This document shows positions 18,176 to 36,152 of a stretch of 64,000 bases of DNA, piece after piece. The stretch is from a virus. Lineage: Duplodnaviria; Caudoviricetes. A program made the position numbers and the translations under genes. Under the pieces are notes generated by a model. It saw nothing but the letters and a program-made list of their open reading frames with translations. It did not search any database and was not told the DNA's origin. Where the stretch lies: IMG/VR virus record IMGVR_UViG_2837678835_000002, positions 346 through 64,345 of that record; one strand, given 5' to 3'. Position 1 is the first letter of the stretch; every line of letters starts with the position of its first letter.

Positions 18176-18176
18176 C

Positions 18177-19999: not shown

Positions 20000-21603
20000 G
20001 AGAACCAATTCTCCAAACAGAATGGGCAGAGCTGCGTCGTGAGGCGATGGCGGTGATGCCGTCCGAGGTCTCTGGCCTCCCGGACGTTCTCCTCACCTAT
20101 CAGCAGGAGCTGGTCGCCTCAGTCTCCAACTTCGCTTTGACCGTCACAGACAAGTCCCGGCGAATTGGCGCGACTTGGGGCGTCGGCGCGGCGGCTGTGC
20201 TCACCTCCGGCGCCAAGCGCTCCGCCGGCGGGATGGACACGCTCTATCTCGGCTACAATCTCGACATGGCGCGGGAGTTCATCGACACCTGCGCCATGTG
20301 GGCGCGGGCATTCAACCAGGCCTGCTCGAAGGTCCAGGAATATCTCTTCACCGAAGAAGGCGAGAAGGGCGAGGACCGGGCCATCCAGGCGTTCCGGATC
20401 ACGTTCGCTTCCGGTTTTGAGATCGCCGCGCTCTCCTCGAAGCCCCGCAGCTTGCGCGGCCGCCAGGGCTTCGTCATCCTCGACGAGTTCGCCTTTCACG
20501 ACGATGCCGAGGAGCTGCTCAAGGCGGCGATGGCGCTGCTCATCTGGGGCGGCAAGGTGCTGGTGATCTCGACCCACAACGGCGTCGACAATCCCTTCAA
20601 CCTGCTCATTCAGGAGATCCGCGAACAGCGTCGGCCCGGGAACGTCGTGCGATGCACTTTCGACGACGCCCTGGCGCAGGGCCTCTATCAGCGGATCTGT
20701 CTTATCCGCGGCCGCGAATGGTCGCCGGAAGCCGAGGCGAAATTCCGGGACGAGATCCGGGCGTTCTATGGCGACGGCGCGGCCGAGGAACTCGACTGTA
20801 TCCCGAGCCAAGGTTCCGGCGTCTATCTGACGTCGGCCCAGATCGAGGCGGTGATGACACCGGACACGCCGGTCTTTCGGCTGGCTTGTCCGCAAGGCTT
20901 CGAGCTGAAGCCTGACATCGAACGCGCGGCCTACGTCCAGGCATGGCTCGAGCTTATGGTCTCGCCGTGCCTTGAGACGCTCGATCGGCGCTTGCGCCAC
21001 CACTATGGCTTTGACTTCGGACGGTCGGGCGACCTCTCCGTCCTCGTGCCGATCGCCGAGCAGCGCAACCTCGTCCGGCGCGTGCCCTTCGTCGTCGAGC
21101 TGCGCAACGTGCCGTTCCGCCAGCAGGAACAGATCCTCTTCTGGATCGCGGATCGCCTCCCACGATTCGGCAACGGCCGCCATGACGCCCGCGGCAACGG
21201 CCAGTTCCTCGCCGAATACGCGATCCAGCGCTACGGCGCCCTGGCGATCGAAGCGGTGATGCTCTCCCAGGCCTGGTATCTGGAGAACATGCCGCCGATG
21301 AAGGCGGCGATCGAGGACCGGACGCTGCTGATTGCCCGCGACGCCGACCATAAGACCGATCTTCGCCAGATCCAGATGGTGCGCGGCATCCCGATGGTGC
21401 CGAACGACGCCCGCACGAAAGGCGCCGATGGGGGCCAGCGGCACGGCGACTTTGCCGTCGCGCTCTGCCTCGCCCATCAGGCCGCGAAGGCGGAGGTGAT
21501 GGAATACGGCTACACGCCCGCCTCCGCACTCGATGAAACGGGTGGCCTTGGATTTGCGAGCGGCGGGGGCAGCCTCAATACGGGAGACCGAACGCTATGG
21601 TGA
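19996..21603 (+). CDS. Large terminase (Mu gp28-like)
   Basis: LLTYQQ, KSRRIGATW, LRGRQGFVILDEFAFH, ISTHNG, GFDFGRSGDLS, HGDFAVA. Confidence 0.95.
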   Translation: MREPILQTEWAELRREAMAVMPSEVSGLPDVLLTYQQELVASVSNFALTVTDKSRRIGATWGVGAAAVLTSGAKRSAGGMDTLYLGYNLDMAREFIDTCAMWARAFNQACSKVQEYLFTEEGEKGEDRAIQAFRITFASGFEIAALSSKPRSLRGRQGFVILDEFAFHDDAEELLKAAMALLIWGGKVLVISTHNGVDNPFNLLIQEIREQRRPGNVVRCTFDDALAQGLYQRICLIRGREWSPEAEAKFRDEIRAFYGDGAAEELDCIPSQGSGVYLTSAQIEAVMTPDTPVFRLACPQGFELKPDIERAAYVQAWLELMVSPCLETLDRRLRHHYGFDFGRSGDLSVLVPIAEQRNLVRRVPFVVELRNVPFRQQEQILFWIADRLPRFGNGRHDARGNGQFLAEYAIQRYGALAIEAVMLSQAWYLENMPPMKAAIEDRTLLIARDADHKTDLRQIQMVRGIPMVPNDARTKGADGGQRHGDFAVALCLAHQAAKAEVMEYGYTPASALDETGGLGFASGGGSLNTGDRTLW

Positions 21604-23210
21604 AGGCCGCGATCGTCCGCTTCCAGGATCGCTGGGGCCGCTCGCCGGAAGCTTCGAGCCTCGGCTCGGAATTCGCAACGCCGCAGGAATGGGGGCCCCG
21701 TCGTGTGATCGGCGACGCCGTCGTCTCGGGGCTCGGTCCGGAGCGGCTTGCCGCAATCCTCCGCCAGTCGGCCGACGGCGATACGCGGTCCTATCTGACG
21801 CTCGCGATGGAGATGGATGAGCGCTACCTCCACTATGCGTCGCAGCTGCAGACCCGGCGCCTGGCCATCGAAGGCATCCCGGTCACGATCGAGCACGATG
21901 ACAAGGTGCCGAAAAAGATCGTCGACGCGGTGAACGACCTGGTCGAGGATACCCGCTTCGAGGAGATGGCCGGGACGCTGACCGATGCGATCGGCAAGGG
22001 CTATGCGGTCTCCGAGATCATCTGGGACTATGAGCGCGGTTTCCTTCGACCCGTCGACTACCGCTGGCGCGACCAGCGCTTCTTCCAATACGACGAGGCC
22101 ACCCGGACAGAACTGCGGCTCCGCGACAATGGCGACCCCCGCAATGGTCTGGCGCTGCCGGCGGCGAAGTTCCTCATCCATGAGCCGCGCACCCGGATGG
22201 GGCTGCCGATCCGCCGCGGCATGGCCCGGCCTGCGGCCTGGGCGTTCCTGATCCAGAGTTTTGCCCTCAAGGACTGGGCGAGTTTCGCCGAGATCTACGG
22301 CGTGCCGCTCCGCGTCGGCAAGTTCGGGCCGAACGCCTCGGAGGCAGACAAGCGGATCCTCCTGCAGGCGGTCCGCGCCATTGCCAACGACGCGGCCGCG
22401 ATCATCCCGGCCGGAATGGAAATGGAATTCGCCAAGGTCGAAGGGCAGCACGGTGCCGGCGTGTTCGGTGGGCTGATCGACTATGTCGACAAGCAGGTCT
22501 CCAAACTCGTGCTCGGCCAGACGATGACCTCGGACGATGGTTCGTCGAAGGCTCAGGCGACAGTCCACAACGACGTGCGTCTCGATATCCAGATGGCGGA
22601 CGGCAAGCAGCTCGGCCAGACAATCACGCGAGATCTCGTCGTGCCCTTCGTCGCGCTGAATTTCGGGCCGCAGGAGCTTTATCCGCGAGCCGTCTACCAG
22701 GTCGCTGCGCCGGAGGACCTCGAAGGGCTGAAGAATTACGTTACCTCTCTCGTTCCGCTGGGGCTGAAGGTTTCCCAGCGAGAGATGCGGGAGCGCGGCG
22801 GGCTTTCGGAGCCGGAGGATGGCGAGGAGCTGCTGAGGCCGGCAACGCTGCCAACGGAGGGCGGCGAGAAGGACAAAAAGCCGGAGGGACCGGCAGGCGA
22901 TCCGGCGAAAGGGGACGCGTCGAGGACGGCAAGACTCGCGGCCGTTGGTGCACCAGCTGGCGACGCGATCGACCAGGCGGTGGCGGAGGTGCTCGGCGAA
23001 GAGGATTGGGAGCCTCTCGTCGCACCGATGATCGCGGGGCTCGAGGCAAAGCTCTCCGCTGCGGCCGACCTCGATGAAGCGAGGGCGATCCTCGCAGCCC
23101 ACCTGGCGGCGATGGATCCGAGCGCGCTGGCGGAAAAGCTCACCCAGGCGGTCTTCGCCGCGCGGATCGCCGGGGAGGCGGAAGAGCCTCTGATCGACGG
23201 CGGAGCCTGA
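21597..23210 (+). CDS. Portal (Mu gp29/DUF935)
   Basis: DAIGKGYAVSEIIW, FAEIYGVPLRVGKF, SKLVLGQTMT, VHNDVR. Confidence 0.93.
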   Translation: MVKAAIVRFQDRWGRSPEASSLGSEFATPQEWGPRRVIGDAVVSGLGPERLAAILRQSADGDTRSYLTLAMEMDERYLHYASQLQTRRLAIEGIPVTIEHDDKVPKKIVDAVNDLVEDTRFEEMAGTLTDAIGKGYAVSEIIWDYERGFLRPVDYRWRDQRFFQYDEATRTELRLRDNGDPRNGLALPAAKFLIHEPRTRMGLPIRRGMARPAAWAFLIQSFALKDWASFAEIYGVPLRVGKFGPNASEADKRILLQAVRAIANDAAAIIPAGMEMEFAKVEGQHGAGVFGGLIDYVDKQVSKLVLGQTMTSDDGSSKAQATVHNDVRLDIQMADGKQLGQTITRDLVVPFVALNFGPQELYPRAVYQVAAPEDLEGLKNYVTSLVPLGLKVSQREMRERGGLSEPEDGEELLRPATLPTEGGEKDKKPEGPAGDPAKGDASRTARLAAVGAPAGDAIDQAVAEVLGEEDWEPLVAPMIAGLEAKLSAAADLDEARAILAAHLAAMDPSALAEKLTQAVFAARIAGEAEEPLIDGGA

Positions 23211-23214
23211 CGGC

Positions 23215-24426
23215 GTGGCGACCGAACTCCAGGCCCTGCCGTTCGCGGAGGCGATCGCCGCGCTTCAGCGGCGCGGCAAGCTCCTCAAATCGCAGTTCGC
23301 CTGGCAAGACGACTGGCAGGCAGACCATGCCGCAATGTTCACCGTTGCCAAGTCGACCGGCTTCGACATCCTTGGCGATGTCTTCGAAGGGCTTTCGAAG
23401 GCGGTAGCCGAGGGGCGGACGGTCGCCGAATTCTCGAAAGAGCTGCGGCCGCTCCTCGAGGCAAAGGGATGGTGGGGCCAGCAGCGTGTGGTCGACCCGC
23501 TGAGCGGCGAGGAGACGATCGCCCAGCTCGGCTCGACGCGCCGGCTGCAGTTCATCTTCGACGTCAATATGCGCGTCTCCTACGCGGCCCGTCACTGGTC
23601 AAGCTTCGAGCGCAACAAGAGGGCGCGGCCCTATCTCCGCTACGTCCACCTGGAAGGCCAGGAACACCCGCGGCTGCAGCATCAGGCCTGGCACAACATC
23701 GTGCTGCCGGTCGATCATCCCTGGTGGAATACCCATGCCTGCCCGAACGGCTGGGGCTGTCACTGCACCCTGCAGAGCCTTTCCCAGCGCGACGTCGACC
23801 GGCTGATGGCGCAAGGCGTGCCTCTGAAGTTCGCGGCGCCGGCGACGACGTCCCGCGACTGGATCAACAAGCGGACCGGCGAGATCCTCAAGGTGCCGGA
23901 CGGCATCGACCCGGGCTGGGCTTACAATCCGGGCAAGGCCGGTCGTGACGCCGTCGTGCGGGATGCTCTTTCCGCAAAGGTTGCCGAGGCGCCGGAAGAG
24001 CTGCGGCGATCGGCCATTGCAGACGTCGTTGCATCGGACGAGTTCGCGCGCTTCCTCGAGGATCCGCAAGGCAGTCTGCCGGTGATGGCGATCGGGAGGG
24101 AAATTGCGGACGCCCTCGGCGCTGACACGACGGTTGCCCTCCTGTCGGCCGACACCGTCGTCAAGCAGAAACAGCGCCATCCCGAGCTGACCATCGAGGA
24201 CTATCGGCGGCTGCCCGCCATCGGCATCGATCCGACCCTCGTCGTCCAGGACGGCGAGACCACCATGGTCTACGTCAAAGAGGACGACGATCGCTGGCTG
24301 CACGCGGCCGTGAAAGTGACCAGGTCCCGAAAGGCCGCCTTCCTGACGAGCTTCCGTTTTACCGGTGCGTCGAACATCCGCAGCCTCTTCAGGCGCGGTA
24401 TCAGGGTTCTGCTGGATAGAAGGTAG
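23215..24426 (+). CDS. MuF (gp30) minor head protein with C-terminal BECR/PBECR2-like nuclease domain
   Basis: MuF core (AMFTVAK, RPYLRY, HPWWNTHACPNGWGCHC, GIDPGWAYNPG) plus ~120-aa extension LSADTVVKQKQRHPELTIEDYRRLP...AAVKVTR...FLTSFR. Confidence 0.85.
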   Translation: MATELQALPFAEAIAALQRRGKLLKSQFAWQDDWQADHAAMFTVAKSTGFDILGDVFEGLSKAVAEGRTVAEFSKELRPLLEAKGWWGQQRVVDPLSGEETIAQLGSTRRLQFIFDVNMRVSYAARHWSSFERNKRARPYLRYVHLEGQEHPRLQHQAWHNIVLPVDHPWWNTHACPNGWGCHCTLQSLSQRDVDRLMAQGVPLKFAAPATTSRDWINKRTGEILKVPDGIDPGWAYNPGKAGRDAVVRDALSAKVAEAPEELRRSAIADVVASDEFARFLEDPQGSLPVMAIGREIADALGADTTVALLSADTVVKQKQRHPELTIEDYRRLPAIGIDPTLVVQDGETTMVYVKEDDDRWLHAAVKVTRSRKAAFLTSFRFTGASNIRSLFRRGIRVLLDRR

Positions 24427-24517
24427 GTGCGCGGTGGGGCCTCCCAGGAACCCCACATGGCGGTCCCGCCCTTTCGGACGGTCCTACGGCCGGGAGAATT
24501 GCACCGTGTCACGCGCC
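24427..24517 (+). ncRNA. Candidate ~90-nt cloverleaf RNA with loop-loop pseudoknot
   Basis: Outer stem GCGCG/CGCGC, three internal hairpins, and CTCCC/GGGAG complementarity between loop 1 and loop 3 (see findings). Confidence 0.5.
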
Positions 24518-24575
24518 CGGCCAATATGCGGCCGATCCGTTTTCGATTCAATGAACCTCATTTCATCAGGCCCGC

Positions 24576-24899
24576 ATGACCGACGTCGCTCCGGAGTTTC
24601 AGCCGACCCTCAAATGGCGACGGACCTTGCCGGATCAGACCAGGGACGACTTCGTTGCCCTGTCTGACGGCTTCGAGGTCTGTCGCTTCTACCGCTATCG
24701 GGTGTCGTCCGAGCTCCAGGGACAATGGTTCTGGACGGTCTTTGCCTTCCACCGCACGCCGAACGCAGAGACCGGCGCGATGCAGGGCTTCGTGCGCGGA
24801 TCGGCCCGCGACGCCGCGAAGGTGGCAGAAGCGGCATTCGAGCGGGCGAAAGCCGTCTGGGGCATTCCCGATGTCGTCCGTTTCGCCACAGCCGAATAG
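24576..24899 (+). CDS. Hypothetical protein (possible immunity protein or moron)
   Basis: 107-aa ORF (LKWRRT...GQWFWTV) between MuF and protease. Confidence 0.6.
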   Translation: MTDVAPEFQPTLKWRRTLPDQTRDDFVALSDGFEVCRFYRYRVSSELQGQWFWTVFAFHRTPNAETGAMQGFVRGSARDAAKVAEAAFERAKAVWGIPDVVRFATAE

Positions 24900-25072
24900 C
24901 GGGCCGCTGACACGCGACGACGCTGTCCGACGCTTCCTGCCACGGCCGATTGGCACGAATCGCGCCCACGGCCTTTGAAACCCCTTTGACGGCGATCCTC
25001 GTTCGGACCATTGTCCGGCTTCGACGTCGTCGGCGCCGATTCCCGGCCCGCGGCCTCTATGTCGCATCCTTC

Positions 25073-25090
25073 GTCGGGACATGTCCCGAC
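25073..25090 (+). promoter_or_regulatory. Candidate late-activator site (PI-like)
   Basis: Perfect 18-bp palindrome GTCGGGACATGTCCCGAC ending 36 bp before the protease ATG. Confidence 0.7.
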
Positions 25091-25126
25091 TGAAACGCTT
25101 TGTCCGGGCCTGCAATGGTCCGGTCC

Positions 25127-26260
25127 ATGACAAGCACCGCAGCCCCATCCCTTTCTCCCGTCGCAACGGGCCAGGCAGGCATCGCCGTTTCGACCGGCGA
25201 CGTCGTCGTCGCCCTGGCTGCGGCTGCGGCGACGAGTGCGACGCCGGATTGGATCAAGATCGCGCCGCGCGGCCGGGTTTCGACCCGGGACGGCCGTTCC
25301 TATGCGTTCGATCCCGAAGCCCTGGCCGCTCGCTTCCAGGCGGACGAGGTCAAAGTCCCGATCGACTTCGAACACGCGACCGGCCATCTCGCGGCCAAGG
25401 GGCAGCGGGTCGATGCTGTCGGCTGGATTGAAGAGTTGCAGGCCCGTACCGACGGTCTCTACGGCCGTGTCGATTGGCTCGACACCGGCCGCGCCGCGCT
25501 GACCGCTCGCACCCACCGCTACCTCTCGCCGTCTTTCCCGCATGACGCCGCCGGCAATGCCGCGTGGATCCATCACGTGTCGCTGGTGACCGCGCCGGCG
25601 CTCTCGAACATGCCGGCGCTTGCCGGTGCTCACCTCCAGCAAACCGCAACGGACAATGTCATGAGCGACAAGATCGCGGCCGCCCTCGGGCTTGCCGCAG
25701 GAACCAGCGAGACCGCTCTTCTGTCGGCGATCGACGGCATGAAGAAGAAGCTCGACGAGGGCAAGATCACCACCGCCCTCGGCCTTTCGGCCGGTGCGGG
25801 CGAGACCGCGGTGCTTTCGGCGATCGCCGATCTGCAGAAGAAGCCGGAGGCGAATGGCGAGATCGCCACGCTCCAGGCGGCGCTCTCGACGACGCAGACC
25901 GAACTCGCTGCCTTGCAGGCGACGATGCGCAAGGGCGTGATCGATACCCTGCTCGACACCGCGCTGAAGGAAAAGCGCATCGTCCCCGCCCAGCGTGAGT
26001 CCTATGCCGCGCTCTGCGCGAGCGATGACGGGCTGAAGCAGGTGACGGCGCTGCTTGCCGCGACGCCGGCGGCGCTCGGCGCGTCCGGTCTCGACGGCAG
26101 GTCACCTGGCGAGGGCGGAGAGAAGGTCGTCGACCCCGTCGCGCTCGCCGCCAGGGCCAACGCCTACCTCTCGGCCCAGACGTCCGCCGGGAACGCGATC
26201 AGCTACATCGACGCCTTCGCCCATGTGCAGGCCGAAGCCGAAAAGGAGGCCGGCAAATGA
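25127..26260 (+). CDS. Mu I-like prohead protease / scaffold
   Basis: PIDFEHAT, AVGWI, YLSPSF, LVTAPAL. The C-terminal Ala-rich scaffold may have an internal start at ATG 25661, as for Mu Z. Confidence 0.92.
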   Translation: MTSTAAPSLSPVATGQAGIAVSTGDVVVALAAAAATSATPDWIKIAPRGRVSTRDGRSYAFDPEALAARFQADEVKVPIDFEHATGHLAAKGQRVDAVGWIEELQARTDGLYGRVDWLDTGRAALTARTHRYLSPSFPHDAAGNAAWIHHVSLVTAPALSNMPALAGAHLQQTATDNVMSDKIAAALGLAAGTSETALLSAIDGMKKKLDEGKITTALGLSAGAGETAVLSAIADLQKKPEANGEIATLQAALSTTQTELAALQATMRKGVIDTLLDTALKEKRIVPAQRESYAALCASDDGLKQVTALLAATPAALGASGLDGRSPGEGGEKVVDPVALAARANAYLSAQTSAGNAISYIDAFAHVQAEAEKEAGK

Positions 26261-26637
26261 GCTACGCCCTCAATCGCGACATCCGTTCTTTCGAAGCCGC
26301 CAGCGCGATCGGCGGCTACCTGATCGTCGCCGCCTCCGGCACGGCCGGTGCCATCGCGGCCGCCGTCGCCAAAAAGGGCTTCGGCGTTGCCGAGCGTGTC
26401 GGATCCGAGGCCGGCCAGATGTGCGACGTGACTGTCGCCGGCATGACCGAGGTGATCGCGGGCGGCGATCTCGACTTCGACGATCCGGTCACCGCCGATG
26501 ACTCCGGCCGCGCCGTCAAGGCGGTCGCCGTCGCCGGCGAGACGGTCCGCATCGTCGGCTTCATCCGCGCCGAGGGGACGACGGGAGACATCCTGCCGAT
26601 CCAGGTCGCGCCGAGCCTCCTCGTCACGCCGGCCTGA
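26257..26637 (+). CDS. Head decoration/cement protein (DUF2190-like)
   Basis: GGDLDFDDPVTADDSGRAV; position between protease and capsid. Confidence 0.75.
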   Translation: MSYALNRDIRSFEAASAIGGYLIVAASGTAGAIAAAVAKKGFGVAERVGSEAGQMCDVTVAGMTEVIAGGDLDFDDPVTADDSGRAVKAVAVAGETVRIVGFIRAEGTTGDILPIQVAPSLLVTPA

Positions 26638-26717
26638 CGGCTGGCGGTCCGCTTCACCCTTAAGCTCCTCGCGCAGCTCTTCGCTGGTGGAGCCTCGAAG
26701 AACAGGAATTCCGCCCG

Positions 26718-27689
26718 ATGGCACCGAACCGTCCGTTTCCCGTCGATCCGACCCTGACCGCCTTTGCGATCGGCTACCGCAACCCGGCCTATGCCTTCAT
26801 CGCCGACGACGTCCTGCCGCGGACGCCGGTGATGGGGGAGCGCTTCTCCTGGACCGAGTATCCGCTCGAGGAAGGGTTCCGCGTCGTCGACAACCGTGTC
26901 GGCCGGACCGGACGGGTTCCGCGGGTCGAGTTCACCGGCTCGCGCAAGGACTCCTCGGTCGAGGACTTCGGATTGGAGGCGCCGATCCCGAACTCGGACA
27001 TCCGCGAGGCCGAACGGATGAAGGCGCAGGGCCTCGGCAACTTCGACCCGCGTCAGCGCGCCGTGATGGGGATCGAAGACTACAACCAGATCAATCGCGA
27101 GATCCGCGTCGCAACCCTCGTCCAGAGCCCTGCGAGCTACCCGACCTCGCAGAAGATGGCTTTGTCGGGGACCGACCAGTTCTCCGACTACGACAATTCC
27201 GATCCGATCGGCGTCCTCAAGGACGTTCTGGACTCCACGCTCGTCTTCCGACCGAACCAGGTGACGATGGGCCATCGCGACTGGACGATCCTGTCCTCGC
27301 ACCCGAAGCTGATCAACGCCGTGAAGGGCGGACTGACGACGGAAGGAATGATCACCCGTCAGCAGTTCGCCGATCTGTTCGAGCTGAAGAAAGTGCTCGT
27401 CGGCGAGGCCTACATGGACGCCGCGAAATACGGCCATGCCGCCGACATCAAGCGGGTCTGGGGCGGCAACATGGTCTTCCAGTTCGTCAACCCGTCGGCC
27501 GACGTCAACGCGGGCACGATCACCCACGGCTTTACCGCCACCTACGGCACCAAGATCTCCGGCTCTCTGCCCGATCCGAACGTCGGCCTCGAGGGCGGCG
27601 AGACGGTGCGCTCAGGCGAGCGGATCAAGGAGCTGATCGTCGCGCCCGGGGTGAGCTTCCTGCTCCAGGACGTCGTCGCTCCGGCCTGA
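26718..27689 (+). CDS. Major capsid protein
   Basis: PFPVDPTLTAFAIGYRN...IADDVLP...SDPI; size and position. Confidence 0.9.
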   Translation: MAPNRPFPVDPTLTAFAIGYRNPAYAFIADDVLPRTPVMGERFSWTEYPLEEGFRVVDNRVGRTGRVPRVEFTGSRKDSSVEDFGLEAPIPNSDIREAERMKAQGLGNFDPRQRAVMGIEDYNQINREIRVATLVQSPASYPTSQKMALSGTDQFSDYDNSDPIGVLKDVLDSTLVFRPNQVTMGHRDWTILSSHPKLINAVKGGLTTEGMITRQQFADLFELKKVLVGEAYMDAAKYGHAADIKRVWGGNMVFQFVNPSADVNAGTITHGFTATYGTKISGSLPDPNVGLEGGETVRSGERIKELIVAPGVSFLLQDVVAPA

Positions 27690-27763
27690 TCCTGCGGACG
27701 TAGAGCCGGCCACGGCGGCGAGCCGCCGGCGCCCTTAGCGAGTTTCCTGAAAGGCTTTGAACG

Positions 27764-28348
27764 ATGGTGAAAGACACCTCCAAGACCAGGACGGCCAACA
27801 CCCTGCTGGCATCCACCACCGCGGCTTCGAACCCGCCTCCTGCTTCGCCGGCGACGCCCGCGGCGGCAAATCCCGCCGTCACCGGGACGCCTCCGGCCGA
27901 TGCGCCAGCGGTGAAGGTCACCACCGAGGCTGCAACGCAGCCGGTGCTCGAATCCGTCCAGACATCCACTGGTCCCACCGGCGAGCCGCGGTCGGCTGAG
28001 ATCGAGCCGCAGCTGCCTCGCTCCGCGGCGTTCCGGGCCCGGGCTGATGCCAGCTTCGATCCTGAATTCTCCGCCACCGGGCGTTCGACCTATGCCGGCA
28101 CGCTCCCCGCCAAGACGCGGGTCCTGGCGAGCGGCGAGCGGATCGAGATCTCGGCGGTGGCGCCCGACACCGAGACCCGAAAGTTCACCGCGGCAATCCG
28201 GATCCTGAAATCGAAGGTGCTCTACGAGCCCGGCGCCAAGGTGCCGCTGACGCGGATCGACTTCGAGGCCAAGCGCTCGCGGGGATCGATCCTCGAGCGC
28301 TTCTTCGAGGACGGCGAGGAAGCCGGCGAGACGGCTTCGGCGGGGTAG
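27764..28348 (+). CDS. Ala/Pro/Thr-rich hypothetical protein (stop codon inside the tRNA gene)
   Basis: ORF follows the capsid gene; TAG at 28346-28348 is tRNA positions 8-10. Confidence 0.65.
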   Translation: MVKDTSKTRTANTLLASTTAASNPPPASPATPAAANPAVTGTPPADAPAVKVTTEAATQPVLESVQTSTGPTGEPRSAEIEPQLPRSAAFRARADASFDPEFSATGRSTYAGTLPAKTRVLASGERIEISAVAPDTETRKFTAAIRILKSKVLYEPGAKVPLTRIDFEAKRSRGSILERFFEDGEEAGETASAG

Positions 28349-28412
28349 CTCAGAGGTAGAGCGCCGGACTCATAATCCGGTGGGCGCAGGTTCGATTCCT
28401 GCCCCCGCAACC
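28339..28412 (+). tRNA. tRNA with CAT anticodon (Met-type; Ile2 not excluded)
   Basis: GGCGGGG-TA-GCTCAGAGGTAGAGC-G-CCGGA-CTCATAA-TCCGG-TGGGC-GCAGG-TTCGATT-CCTGC-CCCCGCA-A-CC; 1:72 is a G:A mismatch; full CCA not encoded. Confidence 0.9.
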
Positions 28413-28418
28413 GAACCG

Positions 28419-28673
28419 CCGGTGGACGGTGCTTGGTGCCGCCGGCAACCGGCGCGGCCCGATATCCCAGGGCCGCGCCACCCGGATACCCGAGCGCGCT
28501 CGTCGACAGGCGCGAAACGGACGGACGGCTGCAGCGACGAGGCGGCCCTCCAGCGACGCGGATCGCTCAAGGCCTCCGGCCATCCGCTCCGATACCCAGG
28601 ACCGGTCCGGTACGGCTCGCAAGGCTCCCGGCACCCGATGGGGACCTTCGAAGGTAGGGGCGCAGCCCGCCGG
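28419..28673 (+). ncRNA. Candidate ~255-nt structured RNA between tRNA and ACP gene
   Basis: Nested long-range stems CCGGTGG/CCGCCGG and GGTGCCG/CGGCACC enclose several hairpins (see findings). Confidence 0.5.
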
Positions 28674-28704
28674 TCAATCATTCATTTCGCCAGGAGCAGC
28701 CCCC

Positions 28705-28956
28705 GTGTCCGCCGACATCGCCGACAAGATCTGCGCAGTCATCGCCAGACACCTCGCCATCGAGCGCGACGAGGTGAGCGAAGGTGCGCGGCTCGTTGAA
28801 ACCTTGGGCGCCGACAGCCTCGACATCGTCGAACTGGCGATCGAGCTCGAGGAGGAGTTCGGCGTTGAACTCAAGGACGAGGCGGTCGAGCACATCGTCA
28901 CCGTCTCCGACGTCGTCACCGCGGTCGAGGATGCGATCGCGAGGCGCGCGGCATGA
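28705..28956 (+). CDS. acpP: Phage-encoded acyl carrier protein
   Basis: AGGAG RBS then GTG; 83 aa, acidic; LGADSLDIVELAIELEEEFGVEL carries the phosphopantetheine Ser; ATGA overlap with the next gene. Confidence 0.9.
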   Translation: MSADIADKICAVIARHLAIERDEVSEGARLVETLGADSLDIVELAIELEEEFGVELKDEAVEHIVTVSDVVTAVEDAIARRAA

Positions 28957-29387
28957 CCAACTTTGCGACCCAGCAGGATCTCGTCGACCGCTTCGGTTCG
29001 ACCGAACTCGTCCAGCTTACCGACCGGGTCAACCGGCCCCCCACGACGATCGAGGCCACGGCTGTCTCGCAGGCGCTCGCGGACGCGTCGGCCCTCGCAT
29101 CGGGCTATGTCGGCAAGTTCTACAAGCTTCCGATGGCGTCGGTCCCGCAGGCGCTCGTCCGGGCGACGGCCGACATTGCCCGCTTCTACCTCTGGGGCTC
29201 CAAGGCCGAGACCGACGGTGAAGTCGAACGCAACTTCAAGATCGCGGTCGCCTGGCTGAAAGACATCTCGCGCGGTGTCGTCCAACTCGACGTCGAGGGT
29301 GTCGCGCCGGCGCAGCCCGAAGGCGGCTCTGTGCAGATCTCTGCACCGGAGCGTCGCTTCTCCCGCGCCAGCATGCGGGGGCTTTAA
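28953..29387 (+). CDS. Mu gp36-like head-tail adaptor (DUF1320)
   Basis: FATQQDLVDRFGSTELVQLTD...DIARFYL...AVAWLKDISRG. Confidence 0.9.
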   Translation: MTNFATQQDLVDRFGSTELVQLTDRVNRPPTTIEATAVSQALADASALASGYVGKFYKLPMASVPQALVRATADIARFYLWGSKAETDGEVERNFKIAVAWLKDISRGVVQLDVEGVAPAQPEGGSVQISAPERRFSRASMRGL

Positions 29388-29389
29388 CG

Positions 29390-29974
29390 ATGGCGGCAGC
29401 CGGTATTCGGATCACCGTCGACGACGCGGCCGTCATGGGCGCGCTTTCGCGGCTGGAAACGCGCGAGCGCGGTGACGCGATGAACGCGATCGGCGCCTAT
29501 CTGGTGACGGCGACCCAGCAACGCTTCGAGCGGGAGCAGGGGCCCGACGGCAAGCCCTGGCAGCGGCTTTCGCCGCGCACTGCCAACAAGCGGATCGGCA
29601 GGAGCCGTCGCGGCTACGAGCACATCCTCCGGGTCAAGAGCCGGCTCTATTCGAGCATCACCTATCGTGCCGATGCGGCCAGCCTGGCTGTCGGAACGAA
29701 CGTCAAATACGCCGCGATCCAGCAGCTCGGCGGTACGATGGAGCAGTCGGCGCGACGGCAGACGATCTACCAGCGCTACGACCCCAAGAGCGGCGAGATC
29801 GACCAGCGCTTCGTCAAGCGCTCGCGGTCCAATTTCGCCCGCGAGGTCGACGTCAAGGCACACACGATCACGATCCCGGCGCGGCCCTATCTCGGCATTT
29901 CCGACGAAGACCGTGCCGAGCTCCTCGAGATCATTGCCGACACCGAGCGCCGGGCGCTGGGAGGTGGCCGATGA
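29390..29974 (+). CDS. Phage virion morphogenesis protein (Mu G-like)
   Basis: RFEREQGPDGKPWQRLSP, GTNVKYAAIQQLGG, IPARPYLGIS. Confidence 0.9.
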   Translation: MAAAGIRITVDDAAVMGALSRLETRERGDAMNAIGAYLVTATQQRFEREQGPDGKPWQRLSPRTANKRIGRSRRGYEHILRVKSRLYSSITYRADAASLAVGTNVKYAAIQQLGGTMEQSARRQTIYQRYDPKSGEIDQRFVKRSRSNFAREVDVKAHTITIPARPYLGISDEDRAELLEIIADTERRALGGGR

Positions 29975-30399
29975 TCGTTGCCGAGATCGAGCAGCGGCTC
30001 GTCGAACGCTGCCAAGCCCACTTCGCGATCATCGCCGGCGCGATCGACCTTGCGACCGTCAAGGATCGGCCGCCGGCTTCGCCTGCCGCCTATGTCGTGC
30101 CGCTGCGCGACGTCAGCGCCGACAACAGCCGGATGTCCGACGTGCTGCAGCGGACCGAGATGGACGTCGGCGTCGTCATCATCGTCGAGAACGTCTCGGA
30201 CGCGACCGGTGCGGCGGCCGGGCAGGATCTCGAAGTGCTGAAGACCGCGGTTCGCAAAGCGCTCATCGGCTGGCAGCCGGCGAGTGCCGAGGATGTCGTC
30301 ACCCACGTCTCTGGCGAGCTGACCAGCGCCAAGGGCGGCACTGTCTGGTGGGAAGAGCAATTCGCGACCGCCTACTACCAAGAGAGCGAGGAGAGCTGA
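29971..30399 (+). CDS. Tail terminator protein
   Basis: PAAYVVP...ALIGWQP...WWEEQF; position. Confidence 0.75.
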   Translation: MIVAEIEQRLVERCQAHFAIIAGAIDLATVKDRPPASPAAYVVPLRDVSADNSRMSDVLQRTEMDVGVVIIVENVSDATGAAAGQDLEVLKTAVRKALIGWQPASAEDVVTHVSGELTSAKGGTVWWEEQFATAYYQESEES

Positions 30400-30400
30400 G

Positions 30401-30637
30401 ATGCCGGTGAGAGAGGGCGGGCGGTTTGTCCGCGACCCGAAGTCCGGGACGGAAAAGCGCGAGGGCGGGACCCGGCAGGATCTGAACGAGGCGGAGATCC
30501 CCAAGGGCCATCCGGCCGAGGCTCGGCTTGCGGAGATCGCCGACGATCAGAGCGGCACGGCTGAAGTGGAGCCGCCGGTCAGTGAGCCGCCGAAGACCAA
30601 AGGCGGCCCGCCCGCCGGGACCAAAGGAAAGGACTGA
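30401..30637 (+). CDS. Small hypothetical protein
   Basis: GGRFVRDPKSG motif; RBS; lies before the tail tube. Confidence 0.65.
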   Translation: MPVREGGRFVRDPKSGTEKREGGTRQDLNEAEIPKGHPAEARLAEIADDQSGTAEVEPPVSEPPKTKGGPPAGTKGKD

Positions 30638-30640
30638 TCG

Positions 30641-31570
30641 ATGGCGAAGCGCTACTATCGCAAGCTTGCGGTCCTGGGGAAGCTCGAAGCCACCTATGGC
30701 GTTGACGCCGCGCCCACCGGCGCAGCCAACGCCATGCGGATGACCGACGTTCAGTTTTCCCCGATGGAAGGGCAGGAGGTTCCGCACGAATCCCTGTTGC
30801 CCTATCTCGGCCATCAGGGCGTCGAGCTTGCCGGTCTCTACGCCAGGCTCGAGGGCTCGATCGAAGTCGCCGGCGCCGGTGCTGCCGGGACCGCTCCGGC
30901 CTACGGCCCGCTGCTTCGGGCCTGCGGCATGGCAGAGACGATCACCGCCGCCACCAAGGTCTCCTACGACCCGGTCTCGACAGGCTTCGAGGCGGCATCG
31001 CTCTACTTCAACGCCGACGGCGTCAGGCATGTGCTCCTCGGCGCGCGCGGGACCTGCACCGTCAATCTCACGCCAAACCAGATCCCGCGGTTCCGATTCA
31101 ACCTGATGGGCCTTCTCGGAACGATCTCCGACCAGGCACTGCCGACGGTCGACCACGCCGGCTTCGTCAAGGCGAGCGTCGTCAACAAGCAGAACACGGT
31201 GATGTCGCTGCATGGTTGGACGGCGATCGCCGAGAGCCTGGCGCTCGATCTCGGCAACCAGGTCGAGATGAGGTTCCTCGTCGGCGACGAGGGGGTCGAG
31301 ATCGTCGATCGCCAGTCGACCGGCACCTTCGTCGTCGAGGCAAAGAGCCTCGCCACCAAGAACTGGTTCTCAATCGCTAAGGCTCGCACCCGCGGTGCCT
31401 TGTCGGCCGTTCACGGAACGACCGCAGGCAACATCGTCGAGTTCAATGCCAACCAGGTCGAGATCGGCCGCCCGAACCAAGGCCAGACCCAGGGCATCCT
31501 CAATTATTCGCTGCCGCTGATGCTGTGCTCGGGCACCGGCGACGACGAGATGTCGATCGTCGTCCGCTGA
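30641..31570 (+). CDS. Major tail tube protein
   Basis: KLEATYGVDAAPT...PAYGPLLRACG...HGTTAGNIV; no sheath gene nearby. Confidence 0.85.
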   Translation: MAKRYYRKLAVLGKLEATYGVDAAPTGAANAMRMTDVQFSPMEGQEVPHESLLPYLGHQGVELAGLYARLEGSIEVAGAGAAGTAPAYGPLLRACGMAETITAATKVSYDPVSTGFEAASLYFNADGVRHVLLGARGTCTVNLTPNQIPRFRFNLMGLLGTISDQALPTVDHAGFVKASVVNKQNTVMSLHGWTAIAESLALDLGNQVEMRFLVGDEGVEIVDRQSTGTFVVEAKSLATKNWFSIAKARTRGALSAVHGTTAGNIVEFNANQVEIGRPNQGQTQGILNYSLPLMLCSGTGDDEMSIVVR

Positions 31571-31636
31571 CGGCGCACGCACCACGCCGTCAGGCGTGGT
31601 GCCCCGACCATTCAAACGCCCTTCGAAGGATCTTCC

Positions 31637-32011
31637 ATGGCTCAGTTCGTTCTCGCCGAGACCTATCGCTACCCCTGGCCGGTCACGGTCCACGTCCCCG
31701 ATCCGGCAAAGGCCGGGGCGACGATCGAGCAGACCTTCGAGGCCTTGTTCGAGGCGGTGTCCCTGGACGAAGCCGAAGCCATGAATGCCGACTATCTCGC
31801 GCTGAAAACCGACGCCGAGCGGTCTGCACATCAGCACGATTTCCTCAAACGCGCCCTCAAGGGCTGGAGCGGCGTCCAAGGGCCCGGGGGCGCCGAGGTG
31901 CCGTTCACGGATGAGACTTTCGCGACGGCGCTGCAGCACGCCTGGTTCCGGCAGGGCGTCTACCGCGCCTATTCGCAGTCTCTCTCCGGTGAGGCCCGAA
32001 CGGGAAACTGA
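31637..32011 (+). CDS. Tail assembly chaperone (G)
   Basis: GWSGVQG...VPFT; ends in slippery G GGA AAC TGA. Confidence 0.85.
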   Translation: MAQFVLAETYRYPWPVTVHVPDPAKAGATIEQTFEALFEAVSLDEAEAMNADYLALKTDAERSAHQHDFLKRALKGWSGVQGPGGAEVPFTDETFATALQHAWFRQGVYRAYSQSLSGEARTGN

Positions 32012-32388
32012 GGGCGGCGGCCCGCGCCGCCGCCTTCGCCTGGGCCGGACGTGCCGATCCGTCCCTATCGGCACGGATCGACGACGACATGCAGCGGCAG
32101 TTCGCGGCGCTCGGCGTCGCGGTGGAACTCGAAGAAGCAGATGACGGGGAGAATAACGACGTGGCGGTGTGGGTGGTCAATTGGCGGACGGTGCTGGCGT
32201 TCCTCGCCTGCGCGACGTGCTGGCGGTTTGCCGCCGGCATGTCGGGCATGATCCGCCTCGGCCTCGACTATGCCGGCGTCGACGTCATGCTCCGCCGCCG
32301 CGGCTATGACGACGTCGACTTTGCCGACATGCAGCTGATGGAAGAGGCGGCACTGGAAGCCTTCGGCGAAGTGGCGGAGGCAGCCTGA
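32008..32388 (+). CDS. Tail chaperone frameshift extension (T, DUF1799-like)
   Basis: The -1 frame from 32008 is open into NWRTVLAFLACATCWR...GLDYAGV...QLMEEAAL. Confidence 0.8.
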   Translation: MRAAARAAAFAWAGRADPSLSARIDDDMQRQFAALGVAVELEEADDGENNDVAVWVVNWRTVLAFLACATCWRFAAGMSGMIRLGLDYAGVDVMLRRRGYDDVDFADMQLMEEAALEAFGEVAEAA

Positions 32389-35300
32389 TGGTTCAGCCGC
32401 TGCAGTTCTCGATGGTCATGACCCTCGACGCCAAGGGCGTCGGGCAGGGCGCACGCGAAGCGCGGCAGGAGATCTCGGCGACTGGCCAGGCCGCGAAGTC
32501 CGCCGGCGGCGACCTCGGGACGATGACGACGGCCATGCAGGCCGAGGCCGCAGCCGCGCGCCAGGTCAAAGACGCTCTGACCGGCGCTACGGGGGCCGAG
32601 GCGGCCTATCGCCAGGAGCTGCAGCGGCGAGTTGGCGCGAACCAGAACCTCTCCGGCAGGGCTCCAACGCCCGCTGCGGGTGGCGGAGCCGGTGCAGGGG
32701 GACTGCCGCCGACGAACCAGACGGCGATGCTCGACCAGGTCCGCGAGCGCTACAATCCGCTCTACAAGATCGGCCAGGATTACAAGCGCACGCTGGGCGA
32801 GATCGCCGCTGCCGAGCGCACGGCCGGTCTCGCGGTGTCCGAGGCGAATGTCTATCGCCGCCAGGCGGCCGAACTTGCCGAGCGCCAGATGCGGGCGCTG
32901 ATGCGGGGCGAGCGCAACCAACCGACTTCGGGTGGCTTTCTCAGCCGCGTCGGGTTCCGGCCCGACCAGGGCATGAACCTCCTTCGGCAGGGCGGCGACG
33001 TCGGCACCATGGCGCTGATGGGCGCCTCGGCGAGCCAGATTCTGACGAGCCAGGGCTTTCAGATCGCCGAAGTTTTCGCCGACGCCGAGGGTGGCGCAAA
33101 GAAGGCACTGAAGGGAATCGGCCAGGAGCTTCTTGGACTGACGCGGTTCGTCAATCCGCTGACGATCGGCCTGACAGCCGCCGGGGGTGCAGTCCTTTAT
33201 TTTGCCACCCGCTCTTCGGCGGCTGAACGCTCGGTCGAAGCATCAACGAAGGCTACAGCCGCTTATGTCGAGGCGCTGAAGGACGTGAAGATGGCCGCAG
33301 GTGACGCGGCTGAAGGCGCTGGACGGATCTTCGAGCGAGAGACTCGCGTGTCCGAGACCACAGCGCGTGCGCAAATGGACGCCGCGTTAAAGGCCCAGCG
33401 CGATGCCCGCCAGGCGGCGGTGGAGGCAGCTGGCTCTCGCCTGAGCCGGGATCTCCTCGGCTCCATGGGCGGCCTTGGCGATAACAACCGGCAGCGCCAG
33501 TTCGCTCTGCTCGACAATGCCATTACGCGTCTCGAAGACGGAACTATCACCGCAAAGCAGTTTCGCGAGGAGATTTCCGCGATACGCGTCGACGGAAATC
33601 TGAGCCGACCTTTTCGGGATGTTGCCGACGCCCTCGAGCAGGATGCGAAGGCAGCCGTTGAGGCGGAAGCGCGCGTCGATTCGCTGAAAGGCGCCGTCGA
33701 GGAACTCCACCGCGTCGCCGCACAGCGGCGGCTCGGCGATGCCATGGAGGCTCTGCGCGGTTATGTGCCCGATCTGAGGACGCCCCGGCAGAGAATCGCG
33801 GAAGACTATAGCCGCGCGATCGGTGCAATCGACTCCATCCCACGCTTCGACAATGCCCGTGGTGGCGAAGGCGAGCGAGCGGCGGCCGATGCACAACGGC
33901 AAAAAGCGCTGGAAGAACTCACCCGACAGGAGGAGATTCGCCGGCGCGGCGTGCTGCTGGATATTGCGGCGACCGGCGCGCGAACGACGGCCGAGCGCGC
34001 GGCGATCGAAAGCGCTAGGGCCTTCAACCAGGCGCTGGCCGATCCAAGCCTCGAAGACCACGAGCGGCAGCTGAGGGCCAACGAGGCGGCGTTGCGCGTC
34101 TACGCCGAGGCGCAGCGGGAAGCGACCGACGCGCTGCAAGGTGCGGTGGACGATCTCGCGCTTGCCGGCCTCGAAGGGGCCGCTCGTGAACTCGCAGCGA
34201 TCAATCAGGAAGTCACCCGGCAGATCGCGCTCAATCCGCAGGCGGCCGACAGCTGGCGGGCCTATGGCGAGGCGCGGCGCGCGGCGCTGGAGATCGAGAC
34301 CAACCGGAACCTCTTCCGCCCGCAGGAGGAGGAGCGCGCCGAGATCGAAGCGCTGGCGGCGGCGCTCGGCAAGAGCACGGCCGAGCGCCGCAGGATCATG
34401 ACGGATCTCAAGTCCGAGCAGGAGCTGCGCCGCGCCGGCATCGATCTGACCAGCCGCGAGGCCGAGGCCTACCGCCGCAATGCGCGAGCGCTCGCTGACT
34501 GGCGCGCGAACGTTGAGAAGTCAGGAAAGGCGCTCGATGATCTCCAGGCGACGGGGCTCGACGCGATCGACAAGCTTGTCGACGGCATCACGGATCTCGA
34601 CGAGAAGGCAGACTTCGAAGCGATCTTTGGCGACATCGCCAAGGACTTCGCCAAACAGTTCATCGACCTGTCTGTCCGCAATCCGCTGAAGAACCTCGCC
34701 GGCGGAGATCTTCCAACGCTGTCGGATATTGGCGGCTTCGAGGGCCTTTGGGCGACGATCACTGGCAAGGCGGTGCCGAAACCGCAGGCGCCGACCATCG
34801 CACTCGCGGAGCGCGGCGCGACGCCGTTCAATCCGCTATTCGTCTCGCTGGTCGGGTCGGGACTACCTGGTTCGATCGGTGGCGGCCTTCTGGCTCCCGC
34901 CGGCGCTAGTGCCGCGACTGTCGGCGGGGTCACTCGCGGTGGGGCACTGGCGCCTGTCACCGCCCTCGATCCTGCGAGCCGGCGGGTGGCCGAGGCCTTT
35001 TCAGTGACGGCGCCCGCCGCGGACGGACTCGTCCCGATTGACCAGATGGCCGATTACATCCGCCAGGCGGCAGCCGCCCGCGGCATCGATCCGGAGACCG
35101 CGCTGCGCGTCGCGAGATCCGAAGGGCTGGGCGAAGGCATCTGGCAGTCGAACTATCGGCGCGGCAGCTACAGAGAACCGTCCTATGGTCCTTTCCAGCT
35201 CCTGAAGGGGGGACCCGGAACCGGCTTCGGACAGGGCCTCGGCAATGCCTTCATGCGGGAGACCGGTCTTGATCCGGCCGATCCGCGGAATGCCTATTCG

Positions 35301-36152
35301 GGCGTCGACTACGCCCTCAACCGGGCTGCTCGAAATGGCTGGAGTGACTGGTACGGTGCGGCGAAGGTAGGGGTCGGCCGTTGGGATGGACTTGCAGGAG
35401 CCCAGGCCCTGCCGTTCGACCAGGCGGCAATCCAGAAGCAGATCGAGGCTTCGCCCTCGGCCCTGTCTCGAAGCGCAGAAGCGCTCGCCCCTGCCGCGAC
35501 CCAGTTTCAAACCGGCTTCGACGGCGCCTTGAACCAGCAGCTGCTCGGCGGCCTCGGTTCGGCTGTCGATCAGTTCCTGCCGGGCTGGGGTGGCATCCTG
35601 CAGAAACTGCTGTCTCAGATGGGGGGTGGGGGCGGCCTCGGGGCTTTGTTCGGCGGCGACCTGGGCTTGCCCGCCATGCCGGCCTATACGGGGCCGGGAC
35701 CTGCCGGCTTCTACGACACCGGCGGCTATACCGGCCCAGGCCCCCGGCACAAGGTTTCGGGTTACGTCCATGCCGGCGAGGTCGTCTGGAACCAGGACGA
35801 CGTGGCAGCCGCCGGCGGCCCGGCCGCGGCCGAGGCCATCCGGATCGGCATGCGCGCGGGGGCGGGATACGAGCGAGGCGGCGTCGTGGCGAAAGCTGTC
35901 GCGCCCTCCTCGTCGCGTCTGCGAGAGGCGGCGCAGTCCAGCGCTTCAGGGGGCCCGTCCAAGACAGTCGTGAACGTCAACAACTACGGGAAGGATGGAG
36001 CCGAGGTCTCGGAGCGCACCGATTCCAACGGTGACCGGATCATCGATGTCACGATCAGGCGCGTCGCGCGAGACGAAGTGACCAGGCGAGGCACGCCGAC
36101 CAATCGCGCGCTTCGGGCCGGTGGGCTGCAGATGCCGGTGACAATTCGATGA
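32388..36152 (+). CDS. Tape measure protein with internal lysozyme/transglycosylase-like domain
   Basis: 1254 aa, Ala-rich helical; YIRQAAAARGIDPETALRVARSEG...SYGPFQL (~35050-35400); GYTGPG...VHAGEVV near the C-terminus. Confidence 0.9.
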   Translation: MVQPLQFSMVMTLDAKGVGQGAREARQEISATGQAAKSAGGDLGTMTTAMQAEAAAARQVKDALTGATGAEAAYRQELQRRVGANQNLSGRAPTPAAGGGAGAGGLPPTNQTAMLDQVRERYNPLYKIGQDYKRTLGEIAAAERTAGLAVSEANVYRRQAAELAERQMRALMRGERNQPTSGGFLSRVGFRPDQGMNLLRQGGDVGTMALMGASASQILTSQGFQIAEVFADAEGGAKKALKGIGQELLGLTRFVNPLTIGLTAAGGAVLYFATRSSAAERSVEASTKATAAYVEALKDVKMAAGDAAEGAGRIFERETRVSETTARAQMDAALKAQRDARQAAVEAAGSRLSRDLLGSMGGLGDNNRQRQFALLDNAITRLEDGTITAKQFREEISAIRVDGNLSRPFRDVADALEQDAKAAVEAEARVDSLKGAVEELHRVAAQRRLGDAMEALRGYVPDLRTPRQRIAEDYSRAIGAIDSIPRFDNARGGEGERAAADAQRQKALEELTRQEEIRRRGVLLDIAATGARTTAERAAIESARAFNQALADPSLEDHERQLRANEAALRVYAEAQREATDALQGAVDDLALAGLEGAARELAAINQEVTRQIALNPQAADSWRAYGEARRAALEIETNRNLFRPQEEERAEIEALAAALGKSTAERRRIMTDLKSEQELRRAGIDLTSREAEAYRRNARALADWRANVEKSGKALDDLQATGLDAIDKLVDGITDLDEKADFEAIFGDIAKDFAKQFIDLSVRNPLKNLAGGDLPTLSDIGGFEGLWATITGKAVPKPQAPTIALAERGATPFNPLFVSLVGSGLPGSIGGGLLAPAGASAATVGGVTRGGALAPVTALDPASRRVAEAFSVTAPAADGLVPIDQMADYIRQAAAARGIDPETALRVARSEGLGEGIWQSNYRRGSYREPSYGPFQLLKGGPGTGFGQGLGNAFMRETGLDPADPRNAYSGVDYALNRAARNGWSDWYGAAKVGVGRWDGLAGAQALPFDQAAIQKQIEASPSALSRSAEALAPAATQFQTGFDGALNQQLLGGLGSAVDQFLPGWGGILQKLLSQMGGGGGLGALFGGDLGLPAMPAYTGPGPAGFYDTGGYTGPGPRHKVSGYVHAGEVVWNQDDVAAAGGPAAAEAIRIGMRAGAGYERGGVVAKAVAPSSSRLREAAQSSASGGPSKTVVNVNNYGKDGAEVSERTDSNGDRIIDVTIRRVARDEVTRRGTPTNRALRAGGLQMPVTIR

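Follow-up and report, generated by a model that had tools for sequence, protein, structure and literature searches.

An acyl carrier protein gene at the junction of the head and neck/tail modules in a small lineage of Mu-like prophages

THE PROPHAGE AND THE LOCUS

The window, by which we mean the whole stretch of 64,000 nucleotides analyzed here, carries a Mu-like transposable siphoprophage whose late structural operon includes a gene for an acyl carrier protein (ACP). The principal features are listed below; unless another basis is given, the genes up to the protease/scaffold were assigned by profile matches.

2810..51980, plus strand: Mu-like transposable siphoprophage carrying the ACP gene, 49,171 bp, with a 5-bp duplication (CGACT) at its flanks
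4629-5411, minus strand: S24 repressor
7354-9846: MuA-like transposase
9579-10688: MuB-like ATPase
19978-21603: large terminase
21597-23210: Mu portal
23215-24426: Mu F
25100-26260: Mu I protease/scaffold
26718..27689, plus strand: major head protein (PHROG 1005), 95-96% identical in the ACP-bearing relatives
27764..28348, plus strand: p194, a lineage-specific protein of 194 aa after the major head protein, family unknown
28339..28412, plus strand: tRNA-Met (CAT), overlapping the p194 stop (Rfam)
28413..28704, plus strand: non-coding spacer of 292 nt before the ACP gene
28692..28696, plus strand: AGGAG ribosome-binding site of the ACP gene, 8 nt 5′ of the GTG (from the sequence)
28705..28956, plus strand: AcpP-type ACP gene, 83 aa, GTG start, Ser38 in LGADSLD (Pfam, PHROG and NCBIfam matches; AlphaFold2 model)
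28953..28956, plus strand: ATGA overlap of the ACP stop and the adaptor start
28953..29387, plus strand: Mu gp36-like head-tail adaptor, the first recognizable neck gene (PF07030, E 1.8e-31; PHROG 195)

The identification of the prophage draws on the MuA-like, MuB-like, S24 repressor, GemA, Mu gp27, Portal_Mu, Mu F and Mu I matches together with its ends (TGTA...TACA), which are intact and flanked by the CGACT duplication (2805-2814 and 51976-51985). A DUF3164 gene was likewise found by profile match, and downstream of the adaptor follow a Phage_tail_S protein, a tail terminator, a tail tube, a chaperone, and a tape measure of 1254 aa. The whole element interrupts the portal gene of an RcGTA-like gene transfer agent cluster and splits the match to the portal profile into 1996-2814 (profile positions 1-184) and 51919-52419 (positions 185-320). 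The cluster's genes lie at 194-2814 and 51919-64000 and comprise the terminase, the split portal, protease, capsid, connectors, tube, and DUF2460 through GTA_TIM; the gene transfer agent of the host strain has probably been disabled by the prophage insertion.

Upstream of the ACP gene, p194 has no match in Pfam, PHROG, NCBIfam or PADLOC. Its homologues number nine, the window's own included, and are present in ACP-less relatives as well; its Atlas model is poor (pLDDT 0.53), with weak leads to a DUF7210 / Rho_N-like C-terminal motif.

THE ENCODED PROTEIN

The gene at 28705-28956 is a genuine, canonical AcpP-type ACP gene located in a late structural operon. An earlier note, made from the letters of the sequence, had described an acidic open reading frame of 83 aa with an intact GADSLD motif and its own ribosome-binding site, and each element of this description is borne out: LGADSLD occupies residues 34-40, the protein has 21 D+E and 7 K+R residues, and the AGGAG before the start has a GGAG or AGGAG counterpart at the equivalent position in four relatives. 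Family profiles concur. The PP-binding domain (PF00550) scores 44.6 bits, above its curated Pfam cut-off of 20.8, PHROG 5934 (annotated "acyl carrier protein") matches residues 4-78 (E 3.1e-16), and the NCBIfam ACP subfamily NF002148 reaches 78.9 bits against a cut-off of 71. The equivalog for the housekeeping AcpP, TIGR00517, is narrowly missed (70.3 against 70.45 bits). The genes adjoining the ACP gene are phage head and neck genes rather than fab genes, and its GC content, 0.651, is similar to the 0.66-0.69 of its neighbors.

An AlphaFold2 model built from 42 aligned sequences (mean pLDDT 88.2) predicts a four-helix protein with helices at residues 2-16, 38-52, 58-62, and 67-82, in which Ser38 marks the start of helix II; this serine is invariant in the five prophage ACPs described below and in both ACPs of the host. 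When the model is compared with the PDB by Foldseek, acyl carrier proteins, free or complexed with enzymes, head the matches (TM scores 0.8-0.9, rmsd about 1 Å).

The earlier note had further reported that FAS, PKS, and phosphopantetheinyl transferase genes are absent from the prophage, and the tools used here agree. The sole match in the genome to the phosphopantetheinyl transferase family PF01648 lies on another contig (C21), outside the prophage; none of the 42 genome matches to the GNAT family PF00583 falls inside it; and the lone prophage match to the ketosynthase family PF00109 is below threshold (19.9 against 20.8 bits) and located in the Ala-rich start of the protease/scaffold gene. 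Among 80 different prophage or flanking open reading frames scanned with Pfam, none carries a FAS, PKS, or acyltransferase domain above cut-off. As far as these profiles reach, the phage appears to bring no recognizable phosphopantetheinyl transferase or acyl-transfer enzyme for its ACP.

COMPARISON WITH KNOWN ACYL CARRIER PROTEINS

The host genome encodes two ACPs of its own. The housekeeping copy (L001, contig C23) lies beside fabG and fabF and belongs to type II fatty-acid synthesis; the prophage protein shares with it the PP-binding domain, the LGADSLD serine, an acidic helix II (17 of 24 residues identical at positions 33-56) and the four-helix fold. In contrast to this AcpP, to which it is 44% identical, the prophage ACP resides in a late operon devoid of fab neighbors, ends in an Ala-Arg-Arg tail, sits on a long branch, is under relaxed constraint, and falls just below TIGR00517. 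The second host ACP (L003, contig C22), beside ketosynthase-like genes, is 27% identical to the prophage protein, and we take it to be AcpXL-like. With specialized rhizobial ACPs such as AcpXL, the prophage ACP has in common that it is an extra carrier beside a housekeeping one and that its set of partners is presumably restricted. It differs from the host's AcpXL-like protein in sequence and in lacking dedicated enzymes such as the ketosynthase-like neighbors of the latter.

Phage-encoded ACPs are widespread: 66 phage records match the protein, all at less than 60% identity, and 429 IMG/VR stretches encode a relative. Stand-alone members such as PHROG 5934 and the ACPs of Brevundimonas phage Bajun and Prochlorococcus phage P-HM2 are similarly small and without a phage phosphopantetheinyl transferase. 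The same holds, to judge from the accessible parts of the two reports, for ORF32 of Erythrobacter phage vB_EliS-R6L (PMC5463345) and for the acpP of roseobacter prophages (PMC8224337). These genes are annotated as auxiliary metabolic genes, whereas the ACP of the window is translationally coupled to an adaptor.

Their genomic surroundings are diverse. When the neighbors of the ACP in 77 IMG/VR loci were scanned with Pfam (150 of 151 open reading frames), most of the 150 had no Pfam match. The remainder included FabG-like reductases with or without a ketosynthase (five loci), NifU or IscA iron-sulfur assembly proteins (four loci: L044, L048, L075, and L112), fatty-acid desaturases, accompanied by a radical SAM protein in three (four loci: L058, L059, L061, and L063), 2OG oxygenases (four loci), RecT or ERF (three loci), M15 endolysins (three loci), a tail sheath (L078), a terminase (L060), and, in several loci, other single families such as sugar enzymes, NAD synthase, and a deoxynucleoside kinase. 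A structural or packaging neighbor thus occurs in only two of the 77 loci, and no adaptor stands beside an ACP outside the present lineage.

The available portion of the Erythrobacter phage paper calls the function of such phage ACPs unclear (PMC5463345). A survey of Rhodobacteraceae prophages, in its accessible text, lists acpP in eight prophages, in two of them as the sole auxiliary gene, and its authors speculate on membrane fluidity (PMC8224337). A 2026 preprint, as far as its available text goes, predicts host FabZ as a contact of one phage ACP (bioRxiv 10.64898/2026.03.01.708874). According to the accessible parts of studies on cellular ACPs, that of E. coli has documented partners beyond fatty-acid synthesis, namely SpoT, MukB, and the ISC machinery (PMC3340395, PMC8602292, PMC13343975), and over-expressed ACP can be toxic in its apo form by inhibiting glycerol-3-phosphate acyltransferase (PMC4736557). 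Our literature search yielded neither a report of an ACP gene within a head or neck operon of Mu-like type nor an experimental study of any phage-encoded ACP. The prophage ACP is a further case of a known, uncharacterized class of phage proteins, found in an unusual and rare position.

RELATIVES WITH AND WITHOUT THE GENE

With the major head protein as a probe, eight loci were returned, of which seven are distinct genome-contig loci (L010 is the contig of L004; L014 is a 546-bp fragment of a head gene). Four of the seven carry an ACP in the equivalent slot:

L004 and L009: two prophages of Aurantimonas sp. 22II-16-19i
L007: a Fulvimarina metagenome-assembled genome
L008: Jiella pacifica

Including the window's own, the ACP-bearing prophages total five in four genomes. 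The four relatives are 95-96% identical to the window in the head protein, 69-80% in p194, 49-66% in the ACP and 67-74% in the adaptor. IMG/VR contributes no further independent copy, since L116 and L118 are contigs of L009 and L004, respectively, and the figures for L117 and L062 match those of L007. A search of 5.8 billion proteins gave a best non-self match of 66% identity, again from Aurantimonas sp. 22II-16-19i, with all remaining matches at 53% or below; these next-best homologues (39-53%) come from mixed sources. The ACP is absent from relatives whose head proteins are 83% (L115, the same as L166), 74% (L167), and 65% (L011, the same as L168) identical to that of the window, and from those at 49-54% (L012, L013, and L119-L123). 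L009, the second of the two Aurantimonas prophages, is probably decaying: an in-frame stop behind codon 100 interrupts its adaptor gene (1815-2249). Its ACP frame is still open.

To place the arrangement in a wider context, gp36-family loci were collected from two genome samples, and the 2.5 kb upstream of each (less where a contig end intervened) was scanned with a purpose-built ACP profile that recovers four of four known ACPs used as positive controls. In the host's GTDB family, gp36 occurs in 16 of 121 genomes, and none of the 20 loci fetched from 21 matches other than the window's own has an upstream ACP. In the host's class, gp36 occurs in 37 of 401 genomes, and the 40 loci fetched of 47 such matches are equally devoid of one. 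Altogether, an upstream ACP was found at 0 of the 60 other gp36 loci examined. p194 is present in 5 of the 401 family genomes, the window's own counted. Among the best 80 of the 429 IMG/VR stretches with an ACP, gp36 adjoins the gene only in the three loci of this lineage. An ACP upstream of gp36 is rare.

A MODULE JUNCTION AND A COUPLED GENE CHAIN

All open reading frames of the window's prophage were compared with those of two whole and two partial ACP-bearing prophages and of three ACP-less ones. The early and head genes of the window recur in the ACP-less relatives, with identities of 83, 73, and 65% for the head protein and of 45, 44, and 41% for p194. For the adaptor, terminator, tube, chaperone, and tape measure of the window, these relatives yield no match at E up to 1e-5, and for the Phage_tail_S protein they yield only matches of 25-29% identity. 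The ACP-bearing prophages, for their part, have the whole neck and tail block in common. Because the ACP-less kin share the head and the ACP-bearing kin share the neck and tail, the ACP stands where a head module meets a neck/tail module. The slot itself is variable, given that Mu-like relatives carry differing small genes between the head protein and gp36.

The earlier note had also proposed that the ACP is coupled through an ATGA to a gp36-like adaptor, and this reading withstands comparison: in all five prophages, the stop of the ACP gene and the start of its successor overlap in this manner. Furthermore, the conserved C-terminal Ala-Arg-Arg codons of the ACP hold a GAGG (AAGG in L008) spaced to serve that next gene. 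In the window and L009 this gene is the adaptor, and in L004, L007, and L008 it is an open reading frame for a hydrophobic peptide of 42 aa. The latter (L004 1644-1772, L007 7162-7290, and L008 7127-7255) is conserved and coupled to both the ACP and the adaptor. The gene order and overlaps show the ACP at the head of a series of translationally coupled genes, comprising the ACP, an optional 42-aa membrane peptide, the adaptor, and the later neck and tail genes.

Such an arrangement invites the idea of an ACP, possibly in its acylated form, that attaches to the adaptor or another neck or tail protein and serves as a chaperone, as a structural subunit, or as an acyl donor to a virion protein. 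Mitochondrial ACP, a structural subunit of LYR-protein complexes, offers an analogue. The ACP heads the coupled neck/tail chain in five of five prophages and travels with this particular neck/tail module, the ACP-less head relatives having other neck and tail genes. However, no acyltransferase was recognized in the prophage, the ACP evolves faster than the adaptor, and the survey of 60 other gp36 loci shows that the adaptor family is ordinarily found without an upstream ACP; even the nearest adaptors outside the lineage (L018 54%, L137 51%, L015 50%, and L012 49% identical) manage without one. On balance, a role in assembly or in the virion is unlikely. Its most specific form, in which acyl-ACP is a true component of neck assembly that docks on, or hands its acyl chain to, the adaptor or another neck or tail protein, is compatible with the strict linkage to one neck/tail module and with the translational coupling to the adaptor, and we hold it to be distinctly improbable. 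Should it be true, a structural or lipidating function in the building of a tailed-phage virion would be seen in a carrier protein for the first time.

THE UPSTREAM tRNA AND SPACER

The tRNA-Met occurs in the window only and is missing from all four ACP-bearing relatives. It stands out in the alignment as a clean insertion exactly where p194 stops, its 5′ end supplying the last codons and the TAG stop of p194. Among host tRNAs it is closest to a tRNA-Met of contig C11, with identity at 59 of 78 aligned positions, and its 3′ CCA is apparently not fully encoded.

The spacer that follows has a different distribution. It aligns with the pre-gp36 spacers of the ACP-less L011 and L167, and in the ACP-less comparison the spacer part of the long frame alone gave a 68% match. 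Since it precedes gp36 in relatives without the ACP, the spacer is older than the ACP. A perfect 10-bp GC hairpin at 28451-28479, directly after p194, is invariant in the ACP-bearing group. As an observation in its own right, a conserved pre-neck spacer of about 250-290 nt (28413-28704 in the window, about 6485-6750 in L011, and about 1255-1510 on the minus strand in L167) may represent a late promoter, an attenuator, or a processing site. Its fold is indistinguishable from that of shuffled sequence (z 0.23), its consensus fold is weak with no favorable covariation (term +0.89), and an Rfam search at E up to 1 returned only the tRNA and two sub-threshold, chance-level matches.

These results dismantle the suggestion, made in the earlier note from the adjacency of the three elements in the window, that the tRNA, a noncoding RNA, and the ACP form a counter-defense cassette. 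The tRNA accompanies the ACP in one of five prophages, the spacer exists without the ACP in relatives, and it has neither a signal of RNA structure nor an Rfam family. Neither the ACP nor p194 has a PADLOC match at E up to 0.01, although PADLOC models defense proteins and not phage counter-defense, on which the lack of a match is hardly informative. Such a cassette can be regarded as very improbable indeed.

The same spacer could instead house a promoter active in the repressed prophage, from which the ACP would be transcribed as a lysogenic-conversion moron that alters the lipid or envelope chemistry of the host to the benefit of the lysogen. Module junctions are typical sites of moron insertion, and the ACP lies at one, behind 292 nt of non-coding DNA. 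A precedent is found in roseobacter prophages in which acpP is the sole auxiliary gene and is discussed, in the accessible text, with respect to membrane fluidity (PMC8224337). What speaks against this scenario is the fabric of the locus: the spacer predates the ACP, no terminator follows the gene, which overlaps the next late gene in five of five prophages, and its GC content matches that of its neighbors. A scan of 27600-29500 found no promoter-like (sigma-70-like) or terminator-like sites, which is a weak test because the scan expects next to none in this DNA. The gene thus has neither the terminator nor the deviant composition of a moron, nor, with the caveat just given, a promoter of its own, and we judge the scenario improbable.

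ORIGIN AND SELECTION

A maximum-likelihood tree built from 63 ACP rows and 82 columns unites the five prophage ACPs in a single clade (support 99/96), whose stem measures 0.64. Within it are two subtypes, one consisting of the window and L004 and the other of L007, L008, and L009, which have a 19-residue N-terminal extension. The host AcpP falls elsewhere in the tree on a short end branch (0.095), whereas the path from the window to L007 amounts to 1.3 changes per column. The single clade, its long stem, and the separate position of the host AcpP indicate that the ACP was acquired once, not recently and not from the present host.

The earlier note had named a sporadic, recent capture from the host, with neither syntenic homologues nor purifying selection, as something that would speak against its reading. 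None of this applies. A recent capture is rejected by the 44% identity to the host AcpP and by the separate, long-stemmed 99/96 clade; the equivalent slot is filled in four other prophages; and purifying selection is evident within the subtypes, with dN/dS values of 0.29 between the window and L004 (bootstrap CI 0.14-0.52) and 0.53 between L007 and L008 (0.30-0.94). Two independent acquisitions of the two subtypes were also considered and rejected on the strength of the 99/96 clade, to whose support the shared C-terminal codons, constrained as a ribosome-binding site, may add slightly.

Between subtypes, dN/dS rises to 0.49-0.73, and the interval for the window and L008 (0.43-1.20) includes 1. 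The neighbors give about 0.25 for the adaptor, about 0.3 for p194, and about 0.07 for the major head protein; the higher between-subtype values of the ACP therefore mean that constraint on it is weaker than on its neighbors. This constraint is unevenly distributed along the protein. Among the five prophages, 15 of 24 positions in residues 33-56 are invariant versus 17 of 59 elsewhere, and the host AcpP agrees with the prophage ACP at 17 of 24 positions in that segment and at 18 of 55 outside it. Helix II and the serine site are thus conserved while the remainder of the protein evolves fast.

The open frame itself was examined as a possible proof of function and rejected as such. When neutral evolution by substitution alone is simulated in DNA as GC-rich as this, an 83-codon frame remains open in 15-38% of the runs, so survival by chance is likely enough for the intact frame alone to be weak evidence. 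Furthermore, because the five ACP-bearing prophages are close kin, they represent few retention events.

In a nearly neutral alternative, the ACP was gained once by illegitimate recombination at the junction and survives by hitch-hiking and because its 3′ end supplies the ribosome-binding site of the next gene. The narrow distribution of the ACP, the raised dN/dS between subtypes, the not improbable survival of an open frame, and the coincidence of the conserved C-terminal codons with the GAGG of the next gene would all be expected of such a passenger. It would not readily account for dN/dS significantly below 1 in two independent pairs, nor for the way in which helix II and the functional motif have been selectively preserved at dS values of up to 0.98 (0.9 between the window and L004). 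We consider a passenger quite unlikely.

A TENTATIVE MODEL OF FUNCTION

The best explanation of the locus is that the ACP is fixed at the junction of the head and neck/tail modules in one small lineage of Mu-like transposable siphophages of Aurantimonadaceae. As to what it does there, we tentatively favor, with a probability of roughly 45%, a late-acting mimic of AcpP that depends on the host AcpS and has few partners. In this model, the ACP would be made late in infection alongside the neck and tail proteins, would be activated by the single AcpS-type enzyme of the host, and would act on host proteins that normally bind AcpP. It would serve a narrow set of partners instead of replacing AcpP across fatty-acid synthesis, and might supply or divert acyl groups for one lipid or envelope pathway of the host or, alternatively, tie up one AcpP-dependent host protein. 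Supply and sequestration are not distinguishable from sequence.

The narrowness of the partner set is suggested by the pattern of conservation: only the universal surface by which AcpS and acyl-ACP enzymes recognize a carrier, comprising the LGADSLD serine and the acidic helix II, is conserved and host-like, and the rest changes faster than in cellular AcpPs, which serve many partners and barely change. We count in favor of the AcpP mimic the identity of the protein, its retention in five prophages, the selective conservation and fast evolution just described, the lack of enzymes of its own, the coupling, and the precedent of other phage ACPs; against it stand the weaker constraint relative to the neighbors, the chance survival of the open frame, and the small number of retention events. 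The tight coupling to neck genes fits an assembly role equally well.

In practical terms, we are left with a real, retained ACP gene whose immediate context is accounted for, and with a putative counter-defense cassette that falls apart. The lineage provides a simple test case, in which an ACP occurs without phage partner enzymes and close natural relatives exist with and without the gene, in what is probably an active, temperate Mu-like phage of culturable marine bacteria (alphaproteobacteria). The binding partner of the ACP would tell whether it feeds host lipid metabolism, blocks it, or serves the virion.

OTHER FEATURES OF THE PROPHAGE

Three further stretches of the prophage deserve mention. 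Between Mu gp27 and the terminase, a low-GC stretch (18740-20008) contains two long overlapping frames of 419 and 414 aa on opposite strands, the minus-strand frame having a weak pentapeptide-repeat match. In the low-GC (about 0.55) right end of the prophage, an open reading frame of 539 aa (49998-51617), which has no Pfam match, a chance-level PADLOC match, and no match in any compared prophage, may be cargo. Finally, 38691-48704 encodes a tail protein of 3337 aa whose one weak Pfam match is to the FNIII-A domain of GpJ.
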